Sequence record: NC_054922.1
DNA length: 64,000 nucleotides
Source of the DNA: Escherichia phage vB_EcoM_KAW1E185
Direction: 5' to 3' (one strand)
The position numbers were made by a program, and so were the translations under genes. Below are positions 2,987-63,620 of the stretch, in pieces. Position 1 is the stretch's first letter; the number at the start of each line of letters is the position of its first letter. The notes under the pieces were generated by a model. That model worked only from the letters and a program-made list of their open reading frames with translations. It did no database searches and was not told the DNA's origin.

Positions 2987-3016
2987 ATAGTACCATGGAA
3001 GAACGGGGATGTAAAC
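2987..3016 (-). promoter_or_regulatory. early-type promoter (-35 GTTTACA, 17-nt spacer, -10 TACTAT) for 2680..2955
   Basis: Read directly on the minus strand; same architecture as the other early promoters in the window. Confidence 0.5.
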
Positions 3017-4412: not shown

Positions 4413-4488
4413 TGGTCGAGGCAGTAGGGATCGAACCTACGACCTAGGACTTAGAAGGTCCTTGCTCTTCCTTCTGAGCTATGCCCCG
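4413..4488 (-). tRNA. tRNA-Arg (anticodon UCU)
   Basis: Hand-folded cloverleaf: anticodon arm AGGAC-CTTCTAA-GTCCT, T-loop GGTTCGATCC, encoded CCA. Confidence 0.85.
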
Positions 4489-4492
4489 TAAT

Positions 4493-4568
4493 TGGGGTGA
4501 CCGATGGGAGTCGAACCCATGACTACGAGAATCACAATCTCGAGTTCTACCAACTGAACTACGGCCAC
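4493..4568 (-). tRNA. tRNA-His (anticodon GUG)
   Basis: Anticodon arm CGAGA-TTGTGAT-TCTCG, T-arm ATGGG-TTCGACT-CCCAT, discriminator C, encoded CCA. Confidence 0.8.
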
Positions 4569-4682
4569 ATTAATACCTACTCCAACAATCAAGATGTCTT
4601 CACACGAAATTAAGAGAAGAGTGATCAGTTCAACCCCTATAATCGCGTCAAGTAGATATTAATGTGACAGTTGTCACAAATT

Positions 4683-4757
4683 TGGCGGACGTGATAGGAT
4701 TCGAACCTATAACCAATCGCTTAACAGGCGATCGCTCTGCCATTGAGCTACACATCC
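4683..4757 (-). tRNA. tRNA-Asn (anticodon GUU)
   Basis: Anticodon arm ATCGC-CTGTTAA-GCGAT, T-loop GGTTCGAATCC, encoded CCA. Confidence 0.8.
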
Positions 4758-4761
4758 AAAT

Positions 4762-4848
4762 TGGTGGGGAGTGGTGGAGTCGAACCACCCGAGTCGCAAT
4801 GACAATGAATTTACAGTCCACACCGCTACCTCTACGGGATAACTCCCC
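4762..4848 (-). tRNA. type II tRNA, probably tRNA-Tyr (anticodon GUA); D-arm non-canonical
   Basis: 87 nt; acceptor GGGGAGT/ACTCCCC, loop CTGTAAA, long variable arm, T-arm GGTGG-TTCGACT-CCACC, encoded CCA; anticodon stem has two G-U pairs. Confidence 0.6.
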
Positions 4849-4857
4849 AAATTAATT

Positions 4858-4932
4858 TGGTGGCCCTGGGTGGAATTGAACCACCATCTGGCGATTATGA
4901 GTCGCTTGCTTGAACCTTCCAGCTACAGGGCC
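4858..4932 (-). tRNA. tRNA with anticodon CAU (Ile2 or Met), in the position of T4 tRNA-Ile
   Basis: Acceptor GGCCCTG/CAGGGCC, anticodon loop CTCATAA, T-loop GGTTCAATTCC, encoded CCA. Confidence 0.75.
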
Positions 4933-4933
4933 T

Positions 4934-5009
4934 TGGTGCTGATTGACGGAATCGAACCGCCGACCTTCTCATTACAAGTGAGTTGCTCTACCTACTAAGC
5001 TAAATCAGC
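4934..5009 (-). tRNA. tRNA-Thr (anticodon UGU)
   Basis: Acceptor GCTGATT/AATCAGC, anticodon loop CTTGTAA, T-loop GGTTCGATTCC, encoded CCA. Confidence 0.85.
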
Positions 5010-5014
5010 AAAAC

Positions 5015-5104
5015 TGGCGGAGGCGATAGGATTTGAACCTATGAGTCGCCGGAGCGACTGCCGGTTTTCAAGACCGGTGCATTAAACCACTCTGCCACGC
5101 CTCC
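5015..5104 (-). tRNA. tRNA-Ser (anticodon UGA), type II
   Basis: 90 nt; anticodon arm CCGGT-CTTGAAA-ACCGG, long variable arm, T-loop GGTTCAAATCC, encoded CCA. Confidence 0.85.
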
Positions 5105-5110
5105 AAATAT

Positions 5111-5761
5111 TTATATATTGTTAATTTGATTTAGAATTCTTTTTGCTTGAGTATGACTTACGCCAATATGCTTAGCATATTTAGACAATTCGCCACGTTT
5201 AGAAAAATCATATAATTTAGAAATTTCTATTCTTCTTTTTCTTTCATCCGCAGAAACTTTTGCTTCGTTTGCTTTTGCTATTTTACGTTTAGCTTCTTGA
5301 GAATGAGTTTTACCAGCAAAGCCATTCTTCATTAATCCATTTGAAGACCATCCTTTTAATTTTCCGTTAGAATGTGCCTTTTTAACACCCAATGAAATTA
5401 ATTCGCGTTGCTGATCTGTCATAGGATAATTATTTATATGGTCCCATCCACCTTCACCTCCAAGTTTTAAATTATACACATCTGGTCTATTTAAAAACTC
5501 TTCTGTGACAATATTTTTCTCGGCTTCAAGCATAGATTCTTTATCGTCAAAATACTCTAATATTTCTTTAGAAAAATTTTCTATACCATATTTATCTTGG
5601 GCTCTTTTTAATAATTTACCAGAACCCATATATCCATCATCTAAATTTTCGGTAGAATGCACACCAATATAAATTTTATTATTAATTTTATTTGTTATTT
5701 TATAAAGATAAAAATGCATATCAGTCCCTAATAAAGAACTGAGCGTCTCACGACGAGTCAT
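5111..5761 (-). mobile_element. segB: GIY-YIG homing endonuclease (SegB-like) wedged between tRNA-Gly and tRNA-Ser
   Basis: N-terminal GIY-YIG module YLYKITNKINNKIYIGVHS plus basic C-terminal region; lies inside the tRNA array as T4 segB does; true start may be the internal Met at 5719. Confidence 0.8.
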
Positions 5762-5765
5762 AAAT

Positions 5766-5839
<74 letters not shown>

Positions 5840-5844
5840 AAATT

Positions 5845-5931
5845 TGGTGCGAGAAGTGGGACTCGAACCCACAAGGAAATCATTCCGCAGCATTTTAAGT
5901 GCTGTGCCTTTACCAATTTGACCATTCTCGC
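5845..5931 (-). tRNA. tRNA-Leu (anticodon UAA), type II
   Basis: 87 nt; acceptor GCGAGAA/TTCTCGC, anticodon arm CAGCA-CTTAAAA-TGCTG, T-loop GGGTTCGAGTCCC, encoded CCA. Confidence 0.85.
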
Positions 5932-5932
5932 G

Positions 5933-6005
5933 CTGGGAATAAAGGACTCGAACCTTTGCATCTAGCAGTCAAAGTGCTATGCCTTACCAACTTGGCTAAT
6001 TCCCA
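5933..6005 (-). tRNA. tRNA-Gln (anticodon UUG), no encoded CCA, abuts tRNA-Leu
   Basis: Acceptor TGGGAAT/ATTCCCA, anticodon arm TAGCA-CTTTGAC-TGCTA, T-loop AGGTTCGAGTCCT; only 1 nt separates it from tRNA-Leu. Confidence 0.8.
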
Positions 6006-6091
6006 ATTATTAACAAAGGCTCTCAAACAAGAACCCTTGATGATAGAGGGTATTAATCAGTGCGGTATGAGTTAATAATAACAAATAATTC

Positions 6092-6607
6092 TTAAAGCAA
6101 ATTAAACATTTTAACGGTCGGCAAAACAATTTCTTCTTCTATATAAGAGTATTTAACACTCTCAACTACACGCAAAAAATCATAATCATAATACTCAGAA
6201 GCATTACCTAAAATATTAATAAGTCCTTCAAGCACTTTATTACCATTCACAAAGAATAAGTCAAATACGCGTTCTTCGTCTTCTTCGGATTTATTACCAA
6301 GGTCAACTTCTATATCAAAGACCTTTTTAATGAATTCTGGATAAAGTTGTTCTGAGAACAGTCCTTCAACCAAGTATTCATAAATAAAAAGCGATTGCTC
6401 GCTGAACAAGCCATTACCACAATAACGTTCAGCTTTAGTACTAGAATGTCTACTTTTAAACTTCTTTAAAAGATATTGAAATTGTAAGATTTCATGCTCT
6501 TCTACGCCAAACAGTGTTTTAGTTTTATAGTTGTCACCATCATTTTCCCAGGTAGTGGCATCAATTACGTAACCCTGTGGAATTGTAGTACCTAAACAAA
6601 TATTCAT
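6092..6607 (-). CDS. hypothetical protein, 171 aa, with duplicated GLFSEQ motif
   Basis: ORF track; acidic; lies in the variable locus between the tRNA array and ipI. Confidence 0.5.
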   Translation of the reverse strand: MNICLGTTIPQGYVIDATTWENDGDNYKTKTLFGVEEHEILQFQYLLKKFKSRHSSTKAERYCGNGLFSEQSLFIYEYLVEGLFSEQLYPEFIKKVFDIEVDLGNKSEEDEERVFDLFFVNGNKVLEGLINILGNASEYYDYDFLRVVESVKYSYIEEEIVLPTVKMFNLL

Positions 6608-6897
6608 TTGCTCACCATATTAATGTAAGTATATTCAATACATTCAAGACCCAAAGGATTCTTGAAAATATCATATTCAAGAGGACCTTTTTCCGTTTCA
6701 ATAAAGAAATCAAAATTTACTGTATTAAATTTACGGTCTTCCTTCACTAATTTAACCTGAGAAGATGAACGGTCAATGTAAACCTTTTCAACTTCAAAAC
6801 ATGTTAAAATGCCATAATCATCAATCAAGGCTTTAGCTGCTTCTTGATCATATTTATATCCATTTTCAATGGATGATACTTTAGCATAAAGAATCAT
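6604..6897 (-). CDS. hypothetical protein, 97 aa
   Basis: ORF track; start overlaps neighbouring stop. Confidence 0.5.
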   Translation of the reverse strand: MILYAKVSSIENGYKYDQEAAKALIDDYGILTCFEVEKVYIDRSSSQVKLVKEDRKFNTVNFDFFIETEKGPLEYDIFKNPLGLECIEYTYINMVSK

Positions 6898-6899
6898 TA

Positions 6900-7310
6900 T
6901 CAGCCTCTATCAACGATAGCATGAGTATGGGCATTTACGATTTGCCACCAGTCGAAACGATTGGAACCATAATCTGGTTTATTTTCATTTTCTTTAATGA
7001 TATCACGCAGTTTATCTTCTGTTTCAGCATACGCAATTAAATCATCATATCCGCCACAAGGATAATAATTATCACCTGCGAATAAAAGAAAATTTACCTT
7101 AGATGGATTTACGTAATAATGGTCTTTAGGATATTTAGTTCCTCTCCAATCAGTTACTTCAACATAACGGTAAGAAAATCCATTTTTACTTTCAATCCAA
7201 CTCCACGCTTCAAAAGGAGTATTAAAAACTTTATCAGGTATTAAATTACCTTCAAAATGAGAAGGATTTGCATAATCCCCGGCATAAACATAATATTCGT
7301 TAATACTCAT
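6900..7310 (-). CDS. hypothetical protein, 136 aa
   Basis: ORF track; tightly packed with neighbours. Confidence 0.5.
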   Translation of the reverse strand: MSINEYYVYAGDYANPSHFEGNLIPDKVFNTPFEAWSWIESKNGFSYRYVEVTDWRGTKYPKDHYYVNPSKVNFLLFAGDNYYPCGGYDDLIAYAETEDKLRDIIKENENKPDYGSNRFDWWQIVNAHTHAIVDRG

Positions 7311-7496
7311 TTATTCACCTTTAGAAATTTTATCCATAACAATAGCAATTAAACCAATTAAAAATGCTACTACAAGTGAAAACACATTTTCTGCTGTAGT
7401 CAATAATCCACATATAAATCCAACAAACATTGAAAAACTAAAAGCGGAAGCAGAAATTGCAATAGCAACATTTCGAATTAATTCACAACGTTTCAT
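7311..7496 (-). CDS. small hydrophobic membrane peptide, 61 aa
   Basis: ORF track; almost entirely hydrophobic; preceded by an early promoter set in an inverted repeat. Confidence 0.4.
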   Translation of the reverse strand: MKRCELIRNVAIAISASAFSFSMFVGFICGLLTTAENVFSLVVAFLIGLIAIVMDKISKGE

Positions 7497-7524
7497 TTTA
7501 TTCTCCTCAGTAGTAGATAGGGTA

Positions 7525-7555
7525 ATAGTATCACTACCCTATCTAAAAGTAAACT
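7525..7555 (-). promoter_or_regulatory. early-type promoter with -10 TACTAT set inside a perfect 10-bp inverted repeat (agatagggta / taccctatct)
   Basis: Minus strand reads GTTTACT-N17-TACTAT; inverted-repeat arms at 7515..7524 and 7535..7544. Confidence 0.5.
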
Positions 7556-7788
7556 TATTTTTTACGAAAAATTGATTTATATTTATCAGCCCATTTCTCG
7601 ATGACTTTTTCTGGTCCATAGATAACAAAATAATCACCAAACTCTTCACCACCGAGTTGACCGAAATTATCTAATGCATCACGAAGAACTCCATGAGGCA
7701 TTTCGCCCATTTTATCTTTCTTACCAATGTAAATAAACTCAACTTTTACATCAGCAGCTTCAGCAATAAATTCTTGATACGTTTTCAT
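7555..7788 (-). CDS. small internal-protein-like protein with capsid-targeting leader MKTYQEFIAE, 77 aa
   Basis: ORF-track ORF trimmed to ATG 7788 (GGAGA Shine-Dalgarno); leader is the canonical T-even internal-protein leader ending in the gp21 cleavage motif I-A-E. Confidence 0.55.
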   Translation of the reverse strand: MKTYQEFIAEAADVKVEFIYIGKKDKMGEMPHGVLRDALDNFGQLGGEEFGDYFVIYGPEKVIEKWADKYKSIFRKK

Positions 7789-7824
7789 TTTATTCTCCAA
7801 TTTCACATTTGTTTTGATAGGGCA

Positions 7825-7854
7825 ATAGTATCACTACTAAAACCCCGTGTAAAC
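7825..7854 (-). promoter_or_regulatory. early-type promoter (GTTTACA-N17-TACTAT) for the 77-aa leader-bearing gene
   Basis: Shares the repeated core aatagtatcactac and the motif gtaaacaactttgtgaaatt with the ipI promoter. Confidence 0.5.
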
Positions 7855-7873
7855 AACTTTGTGAAATTGTTTA

Positions 7874-8161
7874 TTACAAAAGATTTTTAGCAATAATCTT
7901 GAGATGTGCTGCAGAAATGTGTTTAGCTTTAAACAACGCAGTTTCTTCGGCAGGAGAGATAACGATTGTAGCACCATCCTTTTTAGCAGACCACCCATCA
8001 CCTAGGTAAACAGTACCTTTGATTTCTTCGCCATCAACCAGACTAATCATTGGTTTACCTTCTCGTCCTTTATTTGCTTTAATAACTTCAGAAGTAAGAG
8101 TAGCTTCGGTAATGGTAGAAACCGGGGTAGTTGTAGAAGTAAATTCTTTAAATGTTTTCAT
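7874..8161 (-). CDS. ipI: internal protein I (IPI), injected inhibitor of GmrS/GmrD-type restriction
   Basis: 95 aa; leader MKTFKEFTSTTTPVSTITE followed by ATLTSEVIKANKGREG..., recognised as T4 IPI. Confidence 0.9.
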   Translation of the reverse strand: MKTFKEFTSTTTPVSTITEATLTSEVIKANKGREGKPMISLVDGEEIKGTVYLGDGWSAKKDGATIVISPAEETALFKAKHISAAHLKIIAKNLL

Positions 8162-8191
8162 TTTATTTTCCTAATTAATTTTGATGAGATA

Positions 8192-8221
8192 ATAGTATCA
8201 CTACCTCATCAGTATGTAAAC
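8192..8221 (-). promoter_or_regulatory. early-type promoter for ipI, -10 flanked by inverted repeat tgatgag / ctcatca
   Basis: Minus strand reads GTTTACA-N17-TACTAT; inverted-repeat arms at 8182..8188 and 8205..8211. Confidence 0.5.
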
Positions 8222-8233
8222 AACTTTGTGAAA

Positions 8234-8930
<697 letters not shown>

Positions 8931-8931
<1 letters not shown>

Positions 8932-9656
8932 TATAGTACCTTTAGTGTATTTTTAATTTTAGAAAAAAGTTCTTCAAGAGAACCATCGTTTGTAATTACT
9001 AAATCGCCATCACGAATTGGCAATCCAGCTTCTGTAATATGCGTATCATTGGATTTTTGACCAGGACGAACTACATGAATTACTGTAGCACCCATCGCCC
9101 TAGCCGCATCCATTTCATGATCCTGACGGGTATCAGGAACGATATAATAATCATAACCTGAGTTAAATTTATCAAGATAATCTAAAGCAAATAATTTTAC
9201 CCAGTACATGCGGTCGAAGTTATTAACAATCAAATCCGTACCTAGGGCTTGCATCAGACGACGGACTGACCATTGATCTTCAATATTATTTATAACGTCA
9301 GTAATTTTGTTAAATGCTACGAAATTAACTGATTCTTTTCCTTCGTCATCAAAAACAAACACACCTTTAATTGGGCTTTTACCATTAAGATAGCAAAATG
9401 CTTGTTCCATAATCGTGATTACTTCTAATTTAGTCAGATTTAAATTAGTCTCACGATCATAGTCAATTCCTTCAAACTCTTTACGAGTTAAGCAAGGATA
9501 GTCGGTGTTTGCTGCAAATACTCCCCATGCATAAGCCAATGCATCCTTAATAGGACCAGCAAGTTGGTATTTAACTGCAGAATAATTGCTCATGATAAAA
9601 TCAGCAGTAGTATCTTTTCCACTACGCTTTACACCGCTTAAAAAGATTAGTTTCAT
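8931..9656 (-). CDS. 1: gp1 deoxynucleoside monophosphate kinase
   Basis: 241 aa from ATG 9656; P-loop GVKRSGKDT; T4 gp1 length and position. Confidence 0.9.
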
Positions 9657-9705
9657 GTGTTTCTCCTCAAATTTAATTAAGATTATAACACACAAAACTG
9701 AAGCA

Positions 9706-10236
9706 TTAAACTTCTGCTATAATTTTTCCATCTTTTTCTACTTGAAAATAGGTGTAAGGAATCGTTGCTGTACATACTAAAGCCGGGTCTGAATCTTCCG
9801 TGTAGCTAAATTCTACTTCAGACAGGTCAGAAACCCAAGGCTTATAAAAATTTATTGACATCACGATTTCAGTTTTGCTATTATCTAAGATGTAAAGCGT
9901 AATGTACTCAGGACCTGTTTTTTGTGCAGTATTTTCACCTGTAAGATAGTTGCTAGTTCCTAGCATCCATTCATACATTCCTATCCATGACTTAAGTTCT
10001 TCATCAACTATAAATCTCACGATGAGTGGATCATACTCGAATGTAACACCAGGACGTTGTGCTCGGCCCAGTCCAAACGGCCCAGTCACGGTATCAGTAA
10101 CAGGTATTCTAATTCCTGGAATAGGAACTGACTGAGCATTTAAAGTAAAAGCAGATGTAGTATTACTGTGCGGTATTGATACTACAAAGTTAGTTGTATT
10201 TGCTTGGTTAAAAATTTGTTGCAGAGCTTGCGACAT
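9706..10236 (-). CDS. 3: gp3 tail completion / sheath stabiliser
   Basis: 176 aa from the internal ATG at 10236, matching T4 gp3 length and position. Confidence 0.85.
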   Translation of the reverse strand: MSQALQQIFNQANTTNFVVSIPHSNTTSAFTLNAQSVPIPGIRIPVTDTVTGPFGLGRAQRPGVTFEYDPLIVRFIVDEELKSWIGMYEWMLGTSNYLTGENTAQKTGPEYITLYILDNSKTEIVMSINFYKPWVSDLSEVEFSYTEDSDPALVCTATIPYTYFQVEKDGKIIAEV

Positions 10237-55128: not shown

Positions 55129-55158
55129 GGGGACCGAAAGGTCCCCATATTTTTATTT
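55129..55158 (+). terminator. intrinsic terminator after gene 54
   Basis: Hairpin GGGGACC-GAAA-GGTCCCC followed by a T-rich run. Confidence 0.7.
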
Positions 55159-55443
55159 ACGGAATGAAATAAAAGCAGCAACTGAAGCAACTAAACTGTC
55201 TTCAATATAAACTTCAATTTTTACCGGAGCTTCTGACTCAAATTTACCTGTTACTACACCTTGGAAAATGCTTTCAGTCTGCTCTGGCTTTGAAAAATTT
55301 TCAGAAGGAAAAATTCCGAACTTTTTATCTGTTCCAAAAATTTTGATAAATTCATCATAAACTGCTTCATTAAAAGCATTATCAGCAGGAATAACGCCTT
55401 CAACTACAAGTTCTTGACCTAAAAAGCGCAAAGAAGATTTCAT
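55153..55443 (-). CDS. hypothetical protein, 96 aa, downstream of alt
   Basis: ORF track. Confidence 0.6.
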   Translation of the reverse strand: MKSSLRFLGQELVVEGVIPADNAFNEAVYDEFIKIFGTDKKFGIFPSENFSKPEQTESIFQGVVTGKFESEAPVKIEVYIEDSLVASVAAFISFRK

Positions 55444-55503
55444 TTTGTGTTCCTCATGTTATGTAAGTAAAATTATTATAACACAACACGAGGGACTTGT
55501 AAA

Positions 55504-57564
55504 CTACATCTTAAACTTTTTAGACATTCCGTCGATGTTAACCAAAGAAGCTAAGATTTGAGAAACTTCGTTTTCCTCTTCTTTTGATTCTTCTACAAGG
55601 AATTGATTAAATCCAGTCATTGGACGAACTTCACCAGTTTCCATCAGATGGTCGCCATCATATACCGATTCTTCTAATTGTTCAGAAGGAGGAACGATTG
55701 TGCCTTCGATTAAATACTTGTTATAAGCAGTTTCTTTCATCATGTACGTGCTCACTTTATTAATCTTCAGCAAAATTCCACGCGGTAGAATAACTTCAGC
55801 TTCTGTTGCTATTCCGAGACTTCCTGGATATACAACATTAACTTTATGAGCTCCATCAATTGCCCATCCTATTTGAACTTTAACGTATTCAGGATTTTCT
55901 TTATACGCTCTTATTTCGTTTGGATTAATAGTTATTCCTTCTTCATTTTTATCAACCGTTAATTCGTTACGAGCTTCTGGTTCTAAAAGACCAATACCAG
56001 CATGTGTAATTCCAAAACGCCCAAAAATGATAGGAGTTAAAGAAGTAGATACAAAATTTCTGAAATAGAACACTTTATTTTTAACTAGCGCTTCGTATAT
56101 AGGAGCAGTCATACTTTGAGCACGATAAACTGTAATGCCTTCCGGTATGCGGTCACCATTTTCAAAAGCTGAATCTAAATTATTTATAGCAGATTCAATT
56201 TCTTTTTCACTCATTACATCATATCGTTCTGGATTGTAACGACCTAAAAGAAGATTATTGATGTCAGTATATCCTGAACCACAATACTCTCTAATGCCGC
56301 GCTTTTGTGATGGAGTATATTTAGAACCATCACGGGCAATAGTAATATCAATCATTGGACCTGCACCAATTCCAGAAAAACTATAAATCATTCTTTTGAG
56401 GAATTTAGTTTTTGCTGCGTTCCAGGAATTTTTAGTCATTTCTTCCCAGACTTCATCTGGCTGCCCTTTACGAGTTTTATTATGTTTATCAAGCCAATTA
56501 TCTTTATATTCTTCAAAGAGTTGATTAACAGCTGCTGCGTATTTCTCTAAACATTTTATTGAAGTAGTTGGTTCATTTTTAATCGCATTAAGAATTACAT
56601 CTTTAATTTTTTCAGAAACTTCATTAACCTCACTTTTTGAAAAGAATTTATAGTCATAATGAAGTTCATTCGCAGTTCCTTCGGCAATAATTTTTGCTGC
56701 CTTAGTTTTAGAAGCTAATGAATTAATTCCAAGCTTCATTTCTTCTGCTTCGGGAATTAAAGGAGCGGTAGCAGGTTTATTGAAATTAGCTGCGGTAGAT
56801 TCATACTTCTGGAATAATTCACTTTCAAATCTAGAAGATTCCAATGATTGACTTTGCGCAATTGCTCTACGGGAAATTTTAACTTTAACGATTACAGCTT
56901 GGTCAGAACGTTTATCATTTTCTTGTGCAATAGATGCTGCAATTGCCTCATTTTTAGTTACTTGAGCTCCAGTATCTTTATTGATATAAACATCGCCGAC
57001 TTTCGATTCAACTTTAGTAAAGAGCTCGGTACTAATTTCCGGAACTCCTGGAATGTCTTCTAGTGATACATTTTTGCGATGTATAAGAATATATGCATAC
57101 TTTTTATCATAATCCCAGAGTTCCTTAAGAAGGACGTATCTGCCACCTGAACGACTACGGATAAGTCTATCAGCAATAACTTGAATTTGTCGAGCTTGAC
57201 CAGCGGTTTTAGACTTAAGAATACGAAGCATACAAGCATCAATTTTATACTGACGCATTGTTTGCATTGCAACAGTAAAAACTGAATTGATATAATTAAT
57301 TGGGCTTGGACCGAGACCTTTTAATTTAGCAATTGAACCTTTGGCAGTTAATGTAAAAGGAACAATATGCATCATTTTATCGCCCATCTTTAAATCGCGA
57401 TTAGTATCACCTCCAGATGTATAGGTGCATAAACGAAAGCCTGGTTGTTCAATTGCATCATCAACACGAACTGAAAAAATTTGTGGTATTTTCTTCTTTG
57501 GATTTAAGTTTGTAATCGGAAGAGTAGTATCTTCGTCAAATAATTCTGTAATGAGTTCCATCAT
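55504..57564 (-). CDS. alt: Alt, packaged ADP-ribosyltransferase that modifies host RNA polymerase
   Basis: 686 aa; position between gene 54 and DNA ligase; length close to T4 Alt. Confidence 0.9.
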   Translation of the reverse strand: MMELITELFDEDTTLPITNLNPKKKIPQIFSVRVDDAIEQPGFRLCTYTSGGDTNRDLKMGDKMMHIVPFTLTAKGSIAKLKGLGPSPINYINSVFTVAMQTMRQYKIDACMLRILKSKTAGQARQIQVIADRLIRSRSGGRYVLLKELWDYDKKYAYILIHRKNVSLEDIPGVPEISTELFTKVESKVGDVYINKDTGAQVTKNEAIAASIAQENDKRSDQAVIVKVKISRRAIAQSQSLESSRFESELFQKYESTAANFNKPATAPLIPEAEEMKLGINSLASKTKAAKIIAEGTANELHYDYKFFSKSEVNEVSEKIKDVILNAIKNEPTTSIKCLEKYAAAVNQLFEEYKDNWLDKHNKTRKGQPDEVWEEMTKNSWNAAKTKFLKRMIYSFSGIGAGPMIDITIARDGSKYTPSQKRGIREYCGSGYTDINNLLLGRYNPERYDVMSEKEIESAINNLDSAFENGDRIPEGITVYRAQSMTAPIYEALVKNKVFYFRNFVSTSLTPIIFGRFGITHAGIGLLEPEARNELTVDKNEEGITINPNEIRAYKENPEYVKVQIGWAIDGAHKVNVVYPGSLGIATEAEVILPRGILLKINKVSTYMMKETAYNKYLIEGTIVPPSEQLEESVYDGDHLMETGEVRPMTGFNQFLVEESKEEENEVSQILASLVNIDGMSKKFKM

Positions 57565-60828: not shown

Positions 60829-61021
60829 TACTTATAATTTCAACATCAGCCCAATGACCATAGCAAGGAAGACGAAATTCAACTGGCCAGTTAGGGTCCT
60901 TTTCTAATATAATAGACTCAACTTGTGGTTCTTCGTGTTCATCAGTATATGGATTTTTATCTGTTACTTTATATGTGACCTTAATGTACTGAATTCCAAA
61001 AATCTTATTAATTATATTCAT
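60815..61021 (-). CDS. hypothetical protein, 68 aa
   Basis: ORF track; overlapping operon. Confidence 0.5.
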   Translation of the reverse strand: MNIINKIFGIQYIKVTYKVTDKNPYTDEHEEPQVESIILEKDPNWPVEFRLPCYGHWADVEIISIENV

Positions 61022-61215
61022 ACTAATTCCTTTAATCCGTAAATAGGAGATAATTCATCGCCCATACGAAGGTCTTCATTTCCATCTACCCAGGAAACAA
61101 TATAAGCCTCTTTTATTTGAATACCACTCCATTTAAATGGAGGTAGAACCTTAGAAATTAATCCAGGTATACCAACTCCCTTTAATTCAACAGTTTGACC
61201 TAAAAAGAATTTCAT
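61018..61215 (-). CDS. hypothetical protein, 65 aa
   Basis: ORF track; overlapping operon. Confidence 0.5.
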   Translation of the reverse strand: MKFFLGQTVELKGVGIPGLISKVLPPFKWSGIQIKEAYIVSWVDGNEDLRMGDELSPIYGLKELV

Positions 61216-61526
61216 TAGAACCTCATCTGAAAGCCATGCGATTTAACATTACCGCCGCCAATATCAGAAATATTAATTTCACGCGCAATTGAAGGGTCAA
61301 TGTCAATTTCACGATTGAGTTTAGTGATAGCTAAAGTATCGCGCCCATTTACAGTACGGAACTTTAAAGGACATACTACATTAACGTAGTTTTTAATCGA
61401 TTCACTAGTAGGTTGCAAATGAGCAGGAAGGTCTTTAGGCGCCTTAGAGAAAACTACTTCGCAGAAGTTTTTACGAGTATCAAAATAAGTAGTCATAAAC
61501 ATAGTATTTTCCTCAGTAAGGGCCAA
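61215..61526 (-). CDS. hypothetical protein, 103 aa
   Basis: ORF track; overlapping operon. Confidence 0.55.
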   Translation of the reverse strand: MALTEENTMFMTTYFDTRKNFCEVVFSKAPKDLPAHLQPTSESIKNYVNVVCPLKFRTVNGRDTLAITKLNREIDIDPSIAREINISDIGGGNVKSHGFQMRF

Positions 61527-61542
61527 AGCCCCTCATTTTATT

Positions 61543-61908
61543 TTAAATATCAAATTCGTTAAGAACTACATCAAAGATTGCTTCAAGATGCTCAGGTTTA
61601 GCTCTGTTACTCAGAATATGACGAATCCAAGTTTTAACAAGAAGCTTACGATTAACGCCATTCCAGCAAGGATGAGTCCCTAAATCGCGTTGACGAAAAT
61701 CATCATCCAAAGCGATTTTGAAGTTGGAACCTTCCATTGTAATTGAAACCGTGATGCCATTTTCAAATCGCATATAAACGTAGTTAGGAGTCATATACTG
61801 TTCAATTTCGCATACTGATCCATTTTGATGTTTCCAAAGGCAAATAGTATCAATAGAACCTGCAATACCATTAGAAACATATTTACGTTCAAAGTTGATG
61901 TAGTTCAT
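61543..61908 (-). CDS. hypothetical protein, 121 aa
   Basis: ORF track; preceded by a promoter set in an inverted repeat. Confidence 0.55.
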   Translation of the reverse strand: MNYINFERKYVSNGIAGSIDTICLWKHQNGSVCEIEQYMTPNYVYMRFENGITVSITMEGSNFKIALDDDFRQRDLGTHPCWNGVNRKLLVKTWIRHILSNRAKPEHLEAIFDVVLNEFDI

Positions 61909-61932
61909 TTTTATTCTCCGAGATGTTTAATT

Positions 61933-61964
61933 GCGGTACAGGTATATAATATCATATCCTGTAC
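61933..61964 (-). promoter_or_regulatory. early-type promoter with -10 region inside 8-bp inverted repeat ggtacagg / cctgtacc
   Basis: Minus strand GTTTACT-N17-ATTATA; inverted-repeat arms at 61925..61932 and 61948..61955. Confidence 0.45.
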
Positions 61965-61984
61965 CAAAGTAAACAATTATTTTA

Positions 61985-62308
61985 CTACTTTCCAGTGCTG
62001 CATGTCAAGTTTACCAACTTTTTCATCTTCTCAATTAAGCGTTCGGCACGTTGGCGAGCTGTAACATAATACCATTCACCTAATTCATTTTGTTCAATTT
62101 TTCCAACGATTACTGTATTCAATTCATAAATCCAACCAGTAAAGAAATTATGAACTTGAATTGTAAAGGTGAAATCTGTTCCCATACCTTCTGTTGTTTC
62201 TACTTCAATAATATCACCTTCAACTGCCATTAAGAACCACATAGTTTCATCATATTTACCATTGAAGCATTTAGTTTTAACTGCAGCGTTCAGATTAATC
62301 GTTTTCAT
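61985..62308 (-). CDS. hypothetical protein, 107 aa
   Basis: ORF track. Confidence 0.55.
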   Translation of the reverse strand: MKTINLNAAVKTKCFNGKYDETMWFLMAVEGDIIEVETTEGMGTDFTFTIQVHNFFTGWIYELNTVIVGKIEQNELGEWYYVTARQRAERLIEKMKKLVNLTCSTGK

Positions 62309-62335
62309 TTTATTCTCCTTTGTTTGTGTAAGATA

Positions 62336-62365
62336 ATACTATCACAAAGGAACTATACTGTAAAC
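62336..62365 (-). promoter_or_regulatory. early-type promoter (GTTTACA-N17-TAGTAT) with flanking inverted repeat tttgtg / cacaaa
   Basis: Shares the motif gtaaacaactttgtg with the promoters at 7825..7854 and 8192..8221. Confidence 0.5.
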
Positions 62366-62395
62366 AACTTTGTGCAATCTTTGGAAAATAAAAAA

Positions 62396-62413
62396 GGACT
62401 CCCGAAGGAGTCC
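62396..62413 (-). terminator. intrinsic terminator (minus strand) after the small basic protein gene
   Basis: Hairpin GGACTCC-CGAA-GGAGTCC followed on the minus strand by TTTTTT. Confidence 0.6.
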
Positions 62414-62418
62414 TCAAC

Positions 62419-62595
62419 TTATGCTTTCTGCTTACCAAAACGAGAAGCATCATCTCGAAGAACCGCGCGTGCTCGGCGCATGATCTTCTCAACAGTTTGA
62501 TTGATACGAGAGTTCGACCCACGCTTGTAGCCAGCGCGTTTAGAATCACCAACTTTCTTTTCAACTGCTTTCTTTGCTTTAGCTTGTTTTGCCAT
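62419..62595 (-). CDS. small highly basic protein, 58 aa (the longer ORF to 62727 is an alternative)
   Basis: Internal ATG at 62595 has an AAGAGA Shine-Dalgarno; product MAKQAKAKKAVEKK... is K/R-rich. Confidence 0.5.
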   Translation of the reverse strand: MAKQAKAKKAVEKKVGDSKRAGYKRGSNSRINQTVEKIMRRARAVLRDDASRFGKQKA

Positions 62596-62832
62596 TATAA
62601 ATTCTCTTTTAAATGAAAATGCAGGACTTATTGGCATTGCCGCGAAAGCCCTCAAGGGGTACTTAGGTTTTGAATATTTACCGACAGGATAACCATAAAC
62701 CTCGTCAACATTCAAGAGGTACACCATAAAACTGCCGGGGTCTTAAAACTATAATGATTCGCAAATCATTAATCAGACAGTTCGATGGCTCCTCGATTTT
62801 AGCTCACACTAAGGCAGTGAATCTCCAATAAA

Positions 62833-63081
62833 TTACTTCAGTGTTACCACAAAGTGACGAACTGCTTTTCGTGCAGCAGAAGCCAGAGGCTTAGCATACT
62901 TAAGTTCATCTTTTTCCTGAAGCTCAGCAGCTAATGCAGTTTGAGCAGGATTCAGATGTTTGAAATAACGCAGGATTTCAAGAGCTTCGGCTTCAACATC
63001 AATAGATGCGCCATAGTTTTCGTGACCATTATTCCATGCGTTTCGTTGCAGTTCAAGAGCGTGTTGTAATTGTTTAATCAT
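62833..63081 (-). CDS. rIII: rIII lysis-inhibition accessory protein
   Basis: 82 aa; recognised as T4 RIII. Confidence 0.93.
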   Translation of the reverse strand: MIKQLQHALELQRNAWNNGHENYGASIDVEAEALEILRYFKHLNPAQTALAAELQEKDELKYAKPLASAARKAVRHFVVTLK

Positions 63082-63228
63082 TTAAAAATTCTCGTTAGAG
63101 ATTAAAACTCGGTAGTCACGTTCTTCTGAATTTCATCTTCTTTCGACAGATCTCTCAGTTGTAGACTACCACATAGAATTGTTCGGTTAACTTATTATTC
63201 CGACACCCAATTCATATTATTATTTATA

Positions 63229-63564
63229 TCACTTATAAAGACACGGAATAGCTTTATAGTGACAGGTAACGAATTTTTGTTTAATTTCTTTTGGCTGCTT
63301 AAGACCCAGAGCTACAAAAGGATGCGGAACGTTTCGAATTTGACCAACTGGAAGAGAAGTCAAATCACCAACTTCGCAGAAACCTTCAGGAACATCAGGA
63401 CCAACAGAGTGAATTACACACAGTTCAGGAACTTCACCTTGAACACGTTTACCGATAATGAGTCCTGATTCTGTGACTTCTTCATCACCGGCTTGTGCAG
63501 GTTCAGAAACTAAAATAACATATTCACCGACAGCACGAATTGGTAGCTGTTGTACTTCAGACAT
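63229..63564 (-). CDS. 31: gp31 co-chaperonin (GroES analogue)
   Basis: 111 aa; recognised as T4 gp31. Confidence 0.95.
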
Positions 63565-63620
63565 CGTTTTTCCTTTTTGTTAACAGATGAATTAATAATA
63601 ACAAATAATTCTTAAAGCAT

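Follow-up and report, generated by a model that had tools for sequence, protein, structure and literature searches.

What are the repeated promoter sequences that precede several small minus-strand genes in the window (the whole stretch of 64,000 nucleotides analysed here), and do they bear on which genes are found beside them? The original prediction had likened these repeats, with their inverted-repeat arms, to the promoter early stem-loop (PeSL) elements of T4-type phages. We consider it quite probable that they are T4-type early-promoter cassettes of the PeSL kind, one per small accessory gene, with the modules being exchanged by homologous recombination and the hairpin acting in RNA.

Probable early-promoter cassettes at the ipI locus and beyond

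The window belongs to Tequatrovirus, with 99.7% identity to phage R5505, and comprises the classical ipI locus in the minus-strand order 57B/Acb1, cassette, ipI, cassette, ip6-like gene, cassette, trna.4, the T4 gene order trna.4-ipI-57B being kept. Both cassette-flanked ORFs encode internal virion proteins (IPs) as judged by their phrog matches; we take IpI to be an injected anti-restriction protein that blocks GmrSD. A query with the locus matched 776 phage records; the ip6-like gene is full-length in 229 phage records, and 57B is annotated as the anti-CBASS nuclease Acb1 in one record. The genes and cassettes are as follows.

7497..7554, minus strand: cassette Z, from the ip6-like gene to trna.4; -35 GTTTAC at 7554-7549, touching the ip6 stop codon; -10 TACTAT at 7530-7525; SD GAGGAG at 7508-7503
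7555..7788, minus strand: ip6-like internal virion protein gene, 77 aa, N-terminus MKTYQEFIAEA; phrog_8111, E 1.8e-50
7789..7873, minus strand: cassette Y, from ipI to the ip6-like gene; -35 at 7854-7849; -10 TACTAT at 7830-7825; SD GGAG at 7798-7795
7874..8161, minus strand: ipI, 95 aa, same as T4 IpI; phrog_4363
8162..8233, minus strand: cassette X, from 57B/Acb1 to ipI; block TTTCACAAAGTT; -35 GTTTAC at 8221-8216; -10 TACTAT at 8197-8192, preceded by TG; SD AGGAAA
61934..61974, minus strand: early promoter of the 30.7 homologue; -35 GTTTAC at 61974-61969; -10 TATTAT at 61951-61946
62315..62379, minus strand: early promoter of the 30.8 homologue; upstream block and -35 at 62379-62360; -10 TAGTAT at 62341-62336

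The core AATAGTATCACTAC occurs in exact copies at 7524-7537, 7824-7837 and 8191-8204, just where it had been predicted, and far above chance: at up to two mismatches there were 7 matches in the window vs. 0.53 expected, a number reached by 0 of 100 shuffles. The second motif, GTAAACAACTTTGTGAAATT, is exact at 7849-7868 and 8216-8235, as had been claimed, but the third copy put forward with them, at 62360-62379, carries 2 mismatches (3 matches vs. 0.05 expected). The proposed -35 GTTTAC(A/T), 17-nt spacer and -10 TACTAT or TAGTAT held on the minus strand, where the sites read TTTAC(A/T)-17 nt-TACTAT/TAGTAT with a TG extended -10; the 30.7 copy differs, with TTTACT-16 nt-TATTAT. Upstream of the -35 lies the A/T-rich block; 20-45 nt past the promoter sites come an SD and ATG, in every copy as GGAGAATAAA-ATG or AGGAAAATAAA-ATG. 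The three ipI-locus copies and those of 30.7 and 30.8 are intergenic, with the upstream stop codon positioned 0-19 nt from GTTTAC.

All window copies match the extended T4 early-promoter consensus GTTTAC(N14)gtggTAttaT with its A/T-rich upstream region, a consensus attributed to Miller et al. 2003 in the part quoted in the OL960580 annotation; the promoter family itself goes back to Liebig and Ruger 1989, as cited in PMC9391042. From 32 T4 sites we obtained the same extended consensus, comprising a TTTCACAAA-like upstream block, GTTTAC, tGTGg, TActAT and a downstream leader (a.aactAtcaa.ta..ga). A generic sigma-70 scan yielded 13 matches vs. 12.1 in shuffles, i.e. no enrichment, so that the evidence resides in the extended T4-specific consensus, in position and in conservation, not in hexamer matches.

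The published PeSL layout consists of an upstream stop codon, an A/T-rich block, -35, -10, a stem-loop mostly over the -10 or in the spacer, SD and ATG (PMC2839356), and the T4/PST PeSL consensus is TTTACW-N17-TAYWAT (PMC4122927). All parts of this layout are present in the window, in support of the likeness to PeSLs. A cassette runs from the A/T-rich upstream block (TTTCACAAAGTT) through -35 GTTTAC(A/T), a 17-nt spacer with TGn and a -10 TAYWAT to a predicted +1 A seven nt past the -10, followed by a short leader with SD (GGAG or AGGAAA) and ATG; in cassette X this A is predicted at about 8185. Judging from the consensus, host sigma-70 RNA polymerase probably fires these cassettes immediately after infection.

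Hairpins centred on the -10 element

The inverted repeats at 7515-7544 and 8182-8211 were found as described in the original prediction, and they reach 13-14 bp when G.U pairs are counted. The cassette X hairpin (13 bp, 8211-8182, arms CUGAUGAGGUAGUG / UACUAUUAUCUCAUCA) has an MFE of -14.8 and a z of -4.2, with -8.1 for the antisense; that of cassette Z (14 bp, 7545-7514) has a dG of -19.8 and a z of -4.25, or -4.9 vs. flank shuffles. The third predicted repeat lies not at 61925..61955 but at about 61934-61966, over the 30.7 promoter, with arms ggtacagg (61935-61942) and cctgtacc (61958-61965), an MFE of -16.1 and a z of -4.6. The claim that the 7824 copy lacks arms was wrong. In this copy, cassette Y, a weak inner hairpin (GGGGU..UAGUA-GUGA-UACUA..GCCCU) combines GGGGU/GCCCU with an inner UAGUA/UACUA stem, and further out a long inverted repeat, CAATTTCACA (7869-7860) / TGTGAAATTG (7807-7798), encloses the whole promoter and adjoins the SD GGAG (dG -27.9, z -6.1). 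The list of repeats around the -10 was also incomplete: the 62336 copy, i.e. the 30.8 promoter, has a hairpin at 62352-62315 (z -3.0) whose 3' arm (caaaggag) lies over the SD, and so has an additional early promoter at 55504-55475 an inverted repeat around its -10 with the 3' arm over the SD. The promoter at 3016-2987 showed no hairpin (z -0.1).

Across the hairpins centred on the -10, z ranged from -2.0 to -4.9 with flank shuffles and from -3.9 to -6.1 with dinucleotide shuffles, and five of the seven window promoters had z <= -3 vs. flank shuffles. In T4 as a whole, the mean z was -2.04 for 34 promoter-like sites vs. -0.21 for 300 control TAnnAT windows (Mann-Whitney p = 8e-7). We relied on z-scores since a count of enclosing pairs proved useless, with at least 6 such pairs in 51% of control windows too.

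These figures bear on one alternative, namely that the copies are plain strong T4 early promoters, similar to each other on account of a long functional consensus, with incidental inverted repeats and with recombination as an unselected by-product. The 32-site consensus does already cover much of the repeat, the inner 3-4 pairs of the hairpin derive from it, and both a hairpin-less promoter (3016-2987) and chimeric cassettes occur. However, the outer 7-10 pairs fall outside the consensus and exhibit compensatory change across cassette types and genera, and the promoter windows far surpass control windows and their own flank shuffles in folding. We therefore regard plain promoters as a possible account, though one with clearly less than even chances.

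That arm sequences vary between copies, as had been predicted, was borne out, complementarity being kept by compensatory changes. GATAGGG/CCCTATC vs. GATGAGG/CCTCATC amounts to two double compensatory changes, and in Mosigvirus the arm pairs GATAGGACTA/TAGTCCTATC and AGGATGATGGTG/TACTATCATCCT likewise vary while remaining complementary. A formal count gave pairing in 96.9% of cells and change on both sides in 8 of 12 pairs, equalled by 0 of 500 shuffles, but this count is biased, being based on only eight one-register sequences chosen because they fold in that register. Other cassettes fold in registers off by 3 or 6 nt, and these axis differences between arm families ruled out one consensus structure for all cassettes. 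A palindrome over the -10 is also the classical position of a repressor operator, and the repeats might accordingly be operators at which a dimeric DNA-binding regulator turns early promoters off. With at least 5 arm families of wholly different sequence, an axis that moves by 3-6 nt and complementarity alone conserved, the arms would be unreadable by a single protein, and we rejected this reading as hardly credible.

Folding favours the sense strand over the antisense (-9.9 vs. -7.6 kcal/mol, Wilcoxon p = 0.0015; panel means -15.5 vs. -11.8), an asymmetry that could come partly from the promoter core, where GUG pairs with UAU/UAC, as a by-product of the promoter consensus. A second alternative is that the stem-loops are rho-independent terminators or attenuators that stop transcription from the upstream cassette, as proposed for one RB49/phi1 PeSL and tested there with a reporter. 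The SLS of PeSL211/210 cut lacZ expression like rrnB T1 (PMC2839356), and the record of phage SA21RB has a WebGeSTer 'terminator' annotated across the 30.7 promoter hairpin. The stems in the window, on the other hand, are A/U-rich with G.U pairs, and in a scan of 6000-9000 and 61000-63600 no T-run was found behind any -10-spanning hairpin; none of the -10 hairpins has the G+C-rich stem and direct T run of an intrinsic terminator. The one terminator found in that scan stands apart from them:

62394..62415, minus strand: true intrinsic terminator, GGACTCC-TTCG-GGAGTCC then T6, after the 30.9 homologue and directly upstream of the 30.8 promoter

In addition, Arbiol et al. (PMC2839356) treat the T-even IP-locus elements as analogues, not homologues, of RB49 PeSLs, with weaker stem-loops. 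With no T-run, the window copies give no support to a terminator role such as that claimed for RB49 PeSLs, and we deem this reading rather unlikely. At the gathering threshold, Rfam returned 9 tRNA matches in the whole window and zero at the cassettes.

The lack of a T-run together with the better folding of the sense strand leads us to read the hairpin as an element of read-through RNA rather than a classical terminator. Because the inverted repeat lies ahead of its cassette's own start site, the only RNA in which the hairpin can form is read-through RNA from a promoter further upstream. We surmise that it marks or insulates such RNA, by attenuation or as a processing or 3'-end barrier. The three ipI-locus hairpins end 7-17 nt short of the SD; a 5' arm ahead of the start site and a 3' arm over the SD are found at the promoters of 30.8 and at 55475, as well as at T4 dexA, regB, denV and others, and there the hairpin may silence translation of read-through RNA.

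Gene content, breakpoints and module exchange

The number of IP genes at the locus is 0, 1 or 2 across 13 GenBank relatives. When these and six more were compared (19 related loci; IMG/VR scans added only a few T4-like loci), every syntenic breakpoint of the ipI locus was found in a cassette or in the shared start (~35 nt) of the IP ORFs, so that the proposed tie between element positions and gene-content breakpoints withstood the comparison. The primary breakpoints all map to 7534-7537, 7554, 7814, 7872 or 8127-8156, the last within the first ~35 nt of ipI (8127-8161), which are common to other IP genes. The 30.7 and 30.8 copies showed no clear tie to gene-content change among close relatives, their genes being conserved; in Jiaodavirus phages, nucleotide homology begins at the 30.8 -35 block.

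The mobile module of the locus is the ip6-like gene, which is missing from T4, RB27, ime09 and slur11 and present in PYps35T, GiZh and teqskov. Relative to the window, T4 lacks a 300-bp ip6 module that is bounded by a direct repeat:

7514..7534 (copy 1) and 7814..7834 (copy 2), no strand assigned: 21-bp direct repeat GATAGGG(T/C)AATAGTATCAC, spacing 300; crossover zone bounding the ip6 module vs. T4

The T4 HSPs 6900-7534 and 7814-9000 share 21 bp in T4. An ip6 excision circle is predicted to be 300 bp, with its junction inside GATAGGGYAATAGTATCAC.

Direct repeats are formed by the cassettes, by the conserved start of IP genes (~35-45 nt) and by the end (12 nt) of some upstream ORFs, and phage homologous recombination can therefore cross over there. 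As the comparative breakpoints show, whole promoter-plus-ORF modules are thereby inserted, deleted or replaced. A module comprises an ORF with the right half of the cassette before it and the left half of the one after it, and modules join in the invariant core GTGATACTATTA. This make-up explains why the arms vary between copies and why the hairpin is lost in non-cognate joins. Any homologous recombination would place breakpoints at shared sequence, and they are not proof of a dedicated mechanism. The left arm follows the upstream gene and the right arm the downstream gene; arm-mismatched chimeric cassettes make up 3 of 35 in the panel (RB7, T2 and Lv5cm, typed by eye), locus L032 holds two further ones, and in L041 a stretch of 19 bp is duplicated at the core. 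For B-left/a-right junctions, in which the hairpin is broken, at least 80% of the 60-nt query was covered in up to 103 phage records, which indicates that the hairpin is dispensable, at least at some positions.

The same junctions have to be weighed against targeted exchange, in which DNA cruciforms or hairpins would be cut by a structure-specific nuclease (e.g. T4 endonuclease VII), giving integron-like cassette exchange with mini-circle intermediates. The chimeric cassettes must derive from a crossover inside the 12-14-bp invariant core, exactly the hairpin tip, where the L041 duplication also sits, and in RB49/phi1 PeSL mini-circles the crossovers are at or beside the stem-loop (PMC2839356). 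Against this, G.T pairs of the stem become A.C mismatches on the opposite strand and the antisense folds worse; further breakpoints lie at the -35/upstream block and at the shared IP ORF start, i.e. wherever homology exists; no recombinase gene is found nearby; and short homologies suffice for T4 recombination (Singer et al. 1982, as cited in PMC2839356). We judge nuclease-targeted exchange to be very unlikely, and retain homologous recombination between repeated cassettes.

As a more speculative extension, to which we attach a low probability, the -10 hairpins may be non-terminator, sense-strand tags found only on read-through RNA (for processing, end protection or translational silencing), and the arms a compatibility code between modules, given that the left arm is part of the module upstream and the right arm part of the one downstream. 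Tagging of read-through RNA would leave each cassette gene expressed essentially from its own promoter, and the code might be broken by recombination and later restored by compensatory change, as in the Mosigvirus ipI>ip7 cassette.

The genes between the cassettes being injected anti-restriction proteins, located beside 57B (Acb1 in one record), we propose that T4-like phages use the cassettes as joints for exchanging counter-defence genes and altering their host range. For annotation, the cassettes delineate promoters and module boundaries; engineers would find a natural insertion site in a 300-bp self-expressed module with repeats of about 20 bp on either side.

Relation to known systems

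The element class, its occurrence in T4 relatives and the link to IP-gene plasticity are already published (Arbiol 2010; Comeau 2014; Repoila 1994 as cited there). To these our analysis makes three modest additions: the junction falls in the invariant -10 core, each hairpin arm goes with the gene next to it, and some signs point to a hairpin that works in RNA and not as a terminator.

The closest match is with the T4/PST and nt-1/KVP40 PeSLs (Comeau, Arbiol and Krisch 2014, PMC4122927), which stem from T4 relatives, share the promoter consensus, part order and variable stem-loop, and adjoin indels or replacements of small ORFs. According to the figure legend, however, the PST stems lie 'just upstream' of the promoter, whereas those in the window are centred on the -10, and the term 'promoter-terminator motifs' used in PMC4122927 does not suit window copies without a T-run. 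The RB49/phi1 PeSLs (Arbiol et al. 2010, PMC2839356) resemble the cassettes in composite layout, in a stem-loop in the spacer or over the -10 with G-T pairs, and in recombination between neighbouring copies that deletes or inserts single ORFs. They differ in that RB49 has near-perfect TTGACA/TATAAT, G/C-rich GGGG..CCCC stems and measured terminator activity, in contrast to the weaker, A/T-rich stems of the T-even IP locus, and mini-circles were shown only for RB49/phi1. 'PeSL-like sequences' at both T-even IP loci had already been seen by Repoila et al. 1994, by the account of Arbiol et al. 2010 (PMC2839356); as far as that work (EMBO J 13:4181) is related in PMC2839356 and PMC4122927, it agrees with ours in the ipI locus between the tRNA region and 57B, the gene class and the idea of IP shuffling.

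The window copies also fit the T4 early promoter family, down to the TG of the extended -10 and the A/T-rich stretch upstream, but their outer arms are outside its consensus. In T4 genes e, soc and 49, hairpins hide the ribosome-binding site in read-through transcripts and open once a proximal promoter starts within them. The 30.8 and 55475 promoters are alike in having the 3' arm over the SD and the 5' arm upstream of the start site; unlike them, the known cases have late promoters, and the ipI-locus hairpins stop before the SD. Finally, integron gene cassettes (attC) are similarly single-ORF modules bounded by imperfect, variable palindromes and arrayed at one locus, but the window has neither an integrase nor an enzyme-recognised conserved core; here each module carries its own promoter, and homologous recombination explains the exchange.

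Organization of the ipI locus

Positions 6000-10000 of the window share 99.7% identity with Escherichia phage vB_EcoM_R5505 (890 T4-like records matched), and the annotations of R5505 and T4 place cassettes X, Y and Z, three early-promoter/stem-loop copies, in the classical ipI locus, which reads in minus-strand order:

8234-8689, minus strand: 57B, first in order
8162-8233, minus strand: cassette X, between 57B and ipI
7874-8161, minus strand: ipI, identical to T4 IpI
7789-7873, minus strand: cassette Y, between ipI and the ip6-like gene
7555-7788, minus strand: ip6-like gene (77 aa), between cassettes Y and Z
7497-7554, minus strand: cassette Z, between the ip6-like gene and trna.4
7311-7496, minus strand: trna.4, last in order

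The ipI and ip6-like ORFs both fall in 'internal virion protein' families and open with the conserved N-terminus MKT(Y/F)(Q/K)EF of internal proteins (IPs, small injected proteins). IpI is an inhibitor of the GmrSD restriction system. The related record PQ871103 annotates 57B (8234-8689, minus strand) as the anti-CBASS protein Acb1, and a literature search for 57B surfaced a paper on phage anti-CBASS nucleases (PMC9117128); 57B, IpI and the ip6-like gene form a small counter-defence islet. Downstream of the trna.1-4 ORFs lies a tRNA gene cluster (4416-6005, minus strand), with 9 Rfam matches at gathering threshold and 11 tRNAs in the R5505 annotation. A scan of 6000-9000 predicted no terminator-like site between the cassettes and this cluster, so that transcripts running on from the IP-locus promoters would supply the tRNA precursor.

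The 14-mer AATAGTATCACTAC, said in the original prediction to recur at three positions, is there in three exact copies and, with up to two mismatches, has 7 matches in the window vs. 0.53 expected. At each site we found the proposed minus-strand architecture, TTTAC(A/T), a 17-nt spacer and TACTAT or TAGTAT, with TG preceding the -10 and GGAGAATAAA-ATG or AGGAAAATAAA-ATG downstream; two more distant copies are the promoters of the 30.7 and 30.8 homologues. The 20-bp motif thought to be shared by three sites is exact at two of them, with 2 mismatches at the third (62360-62379); it comprises the -35 and the block upstream, where TT[TC]ACAAA occurs in 9 of 32 T4 early promoters, and is a part of the promoter, no separate element. 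A generic sigma-70 scan gave no enrichment over shuffles, so the evidence for promoters comes from the long T4-specific consensus together with position.

Hairpins around the -10 element

Inverted repeats at 7515-7544 and 8182-8211 match their earlier description; that of 30.7 lies at ~61934-61966, shifted rightward by ten bases from the range first given, and the '7824' copy, which had been called armless, contains both an inner hairpin that is interrupted (GGGGU..UAGUA-GUGA-UACUA..GCCCU) and an outer inverted repeat of 10 bp (7869-7860 / 7807-7798) with the whole promoter inside, folding best of all cassettes (dG -27.9, z -6.1). When 50-nt windows centred on the -10 were folded against shuffles of both flanks, z was -3 or lower in 5 of the 7 convincing window promoters. 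In T4 early regions (L050, L051, L001 and L052), 34 minus-strand sites of the form GTTTAC-N17-19-TAnnAT had a mean z of -2.04, vs. -0.21 in 300 control TAnnAT windows (Mann-Whitney p = 8e-7), with z below -2 in 47% vs. 9%. The -10 hairpin exceeds chance. Within the left arm of one such early-promoter hairpin (ataggctNatgatt), the T4 reference AF158101 carries an N at ~70330 (L001 ~2336).

Two layouts were seen: class I, a tight -10-centred hairpin (ipI, trna.4, 30.7, cd.3, frd.2), and class II, with the 5' arm in the spacer and the SD under the 3' arm (dexA, regB, denV, 30.8 and others). Inverted repeats also surround the -10 at the 30.8 promoter and at the early promoter 55504-55475; none does at promoter 3016-2987. 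The 55504-55475 promoter (feature 55453-55504, minus strand), between alt (55504-57564) and a 96-aa ORF (55153-55443), has a 13-bp hairpin with its 5' arm in the spacer and its 3' arm (aacaugagg) over the SD, which would thus be free only in transcripts from its own promoter; the 30.8 promoter hairpin (62352-62315), T4 dexA, regB, denV and other sites share this layout. The promoter at 2987-3016 (minus strand) belongs to a nearly identical subfamily with at least 6 repeats in T4 (27056, 55360, 70672, 146851, 163649, 167062), reading ttttttcacaaaacN-GTTTAC-..ccatgg-TACTAT-acaactatcaactactgatac, with a highly conserved leader and no hairpin; this dispersed repeat of ~80 bp could equally be used as a recombination substrate.

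Arm sequences vary by cassette type with complementarity kept, as exemplified by GATAGGG/CCCTATC and GATGAGG/CCTCATC (two double compensatory changes apart), the Mosigvirus arms GATAGGACTA/TAGTCCTATC and AGGATGATGGTG/TACTATCATCCT, and a Jiaodavirus trna.4-like cassette with an 11-bp stem including one G.U pair. Among eight cassettes picked for folding in one shared register, 96.9% of cells were paired vs. 33-69% with the partner slid, and both sides had changed in 8 of 12 pairs, matched by 0 of 500 shuffles; in other families the fold is displaced by 3 or 6 nt, which makes the hairpin position loose.

The predicted own start site, 7 nt past the -10 (A at 8185, 7818 and 7518), falls within the 3' arm or past it, and the hairpin would thus be possible only in RNA reading through from upstream. 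Sense strands folded better than antisense (-9.9 vs. -7.6 kcal/mol in T4, Wilcoxon p = 0.0015; -15.5 vs. -11.8 in the panel) because G.U pairs would be A.C on the opposite strand, an asymmetry that comes partly from the promoter core (GUG opposite UAU/UAC) and is taken as suggestive only. We favor an RNA-level role of the hairpin in read-through transcripts. None of the -10 hairpins has a T-run behind it, and the label 'terminator' was therefore not adopted for the window copies. The sole terminator-like site near the cassettes is a strong intrinsic terminator, a GGACTCC-TTCG-GGAGTCC-T6 hairpin (62415-62394, minus strand) just ahead of the 30.8 early promoter; this terminator-promoter pair is conserved in the Jiaodavirus Klebsiella phage JIPh_Kp122 (L049 ~1000-1060).

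Breakpoints and module exchange

Across 13 GenBank relatives, the trna.4-57B interval holds no IP gene (slur11), one (T4, RB27, ime09, ST0, NRG-P0074) or two (RB7, PYps35T, GiZh, T2, Lv5cm, LF82-33, teqskov, as in the window), drawn from at least 6 families, with one cassette ahead of every gene. As anticipated, breakpoints coincide with the elements: in blastn comparisons of 19 loci (the 13 relatives, a Jiaodavirus (Klebsiella) phage locus and five IMG/VR loci), all primary ones fell in a cassette or in the shared 5' end of IP ORFs.

Breakpoint zones found by blastn (window positions)
7534-7537 and 7814: cassette core
7554: -35 edge
7872: cassette end
8127-8156: shared IP ORF 5' end, first ~35 nt and start codon

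Relative to the window, T4 lacks exactly the 300-bp ip6 module, and its two alignments overlap by 21 bp, corresponding to the direct repeat GATAGGG(T/C)AATAGTATCAC at 7514-7534 and 7814-7834.

Across phages, the left arm tracks the upstream gene (type A after 57B, B after ipI or ip5, C after ip6 or ip7), and the right arm and SD track the downstream gene; the module is therefore a right half-cassette, an ORF and a left half-cassette, joined within the invariant GTGATACTATTA. Joins were cognate, with the hairpin kept, in 32 of 35 panel cassettes and chimeric, pairing non-cognate arms, in three (RB7 ip5>ipI, T2 ip5>ip7, Lv5cm ipB>ip7); two further chimeras occur in the IMG/VR locus L032. With 80% or more of a 60-nt query covered, the chimeric B/a junction was found in up to 103 phage records (cognate A/a, 288), hence loss of the hairpin is tolerated. 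In Mosigvirus LF82-33, the ipI>ip7 cassette (L010 1770-1832) combines Mosigvirus-type arms AATAGGACTA/TAGTCCTATC with a Tequatrovirus a-type SD region CAAAATTAATTAGGAAAATAAA, and keeps an intact hairpin; the corresponding Tequatrovirus joins (T2, Lv5cm), by contrast, are chimeric. In a 170,341-bp IMG/VR contig (L041 ~2003-2081), a 19-bp tandem duplication (TACTATTACCTCATCAAGA / TACTATTACCTCATCAAAA) spans the -10 and right arm of an IP-gene cassette and resembles a product of slippage or unequal crossover at the core.

The final 12 nt of ip5 and 57B, GATTTAAAATAA (..DLK stop), are shared and followed by a common TTTCACAAAGTTGTTTAC (ip5: L003 2192-2275, L005, L006, L007; 57B: window 8234-8245), so that the repeated block takes in the 3' terminus of the upstream ORF, as though a crossover inside the 57B end had brought in ip5. 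Homology likewise reaches into the ip6 coding sequence, whose opening 45 nt match ipIII and other IP genes. Short dispersed repeats undergoing homologous recombination would yield all of the observed gene-content patterns, and nothing observed requires a site-specific enzyme.

Relation to known PeSL elements

For promoter-early stem-loops (PeSLs) of RB49/phi1, Arbiol et al. 2010 (PMC2839356) report: 1) the order stop codon, A/T-rich region, -35, -10, stem-loop, SD, ATG; 2) a stem-loop mostly within the spacer or overlapping the -10, G-T pairs included; 3) promoter and terminator activity of example PeSLs; and 4) mini-circles from crossovers between neighboring copies. Their discussion, citing Repoila et al., describes PeSL-like elements at the two IP loci of T-even phages, based on T4 early promoters and with weaker A/T-rich stems, and Comeau et al. 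2014 (PMC4122927) extend PeSLs to T4/PST, where the consensus is TTTACW-N17-TAYWAT. The window cassettes agree with PeSLs in all sequence-level criteria, and a terminator function, judged from sequence, seems doubtful. With two corrections, the observation holds, and the PeSL-type interpretation is supported: the window copies are likely PeSL-type early-promoter cassettes acting as crossover points. The feature itself is already known, and our additions are incremental, namely the junction at the -10 core, the linkage of arms to neighboring genes, hairpins without a T-run, better folding of the sense strand and a second hairpin class occluding the SD.
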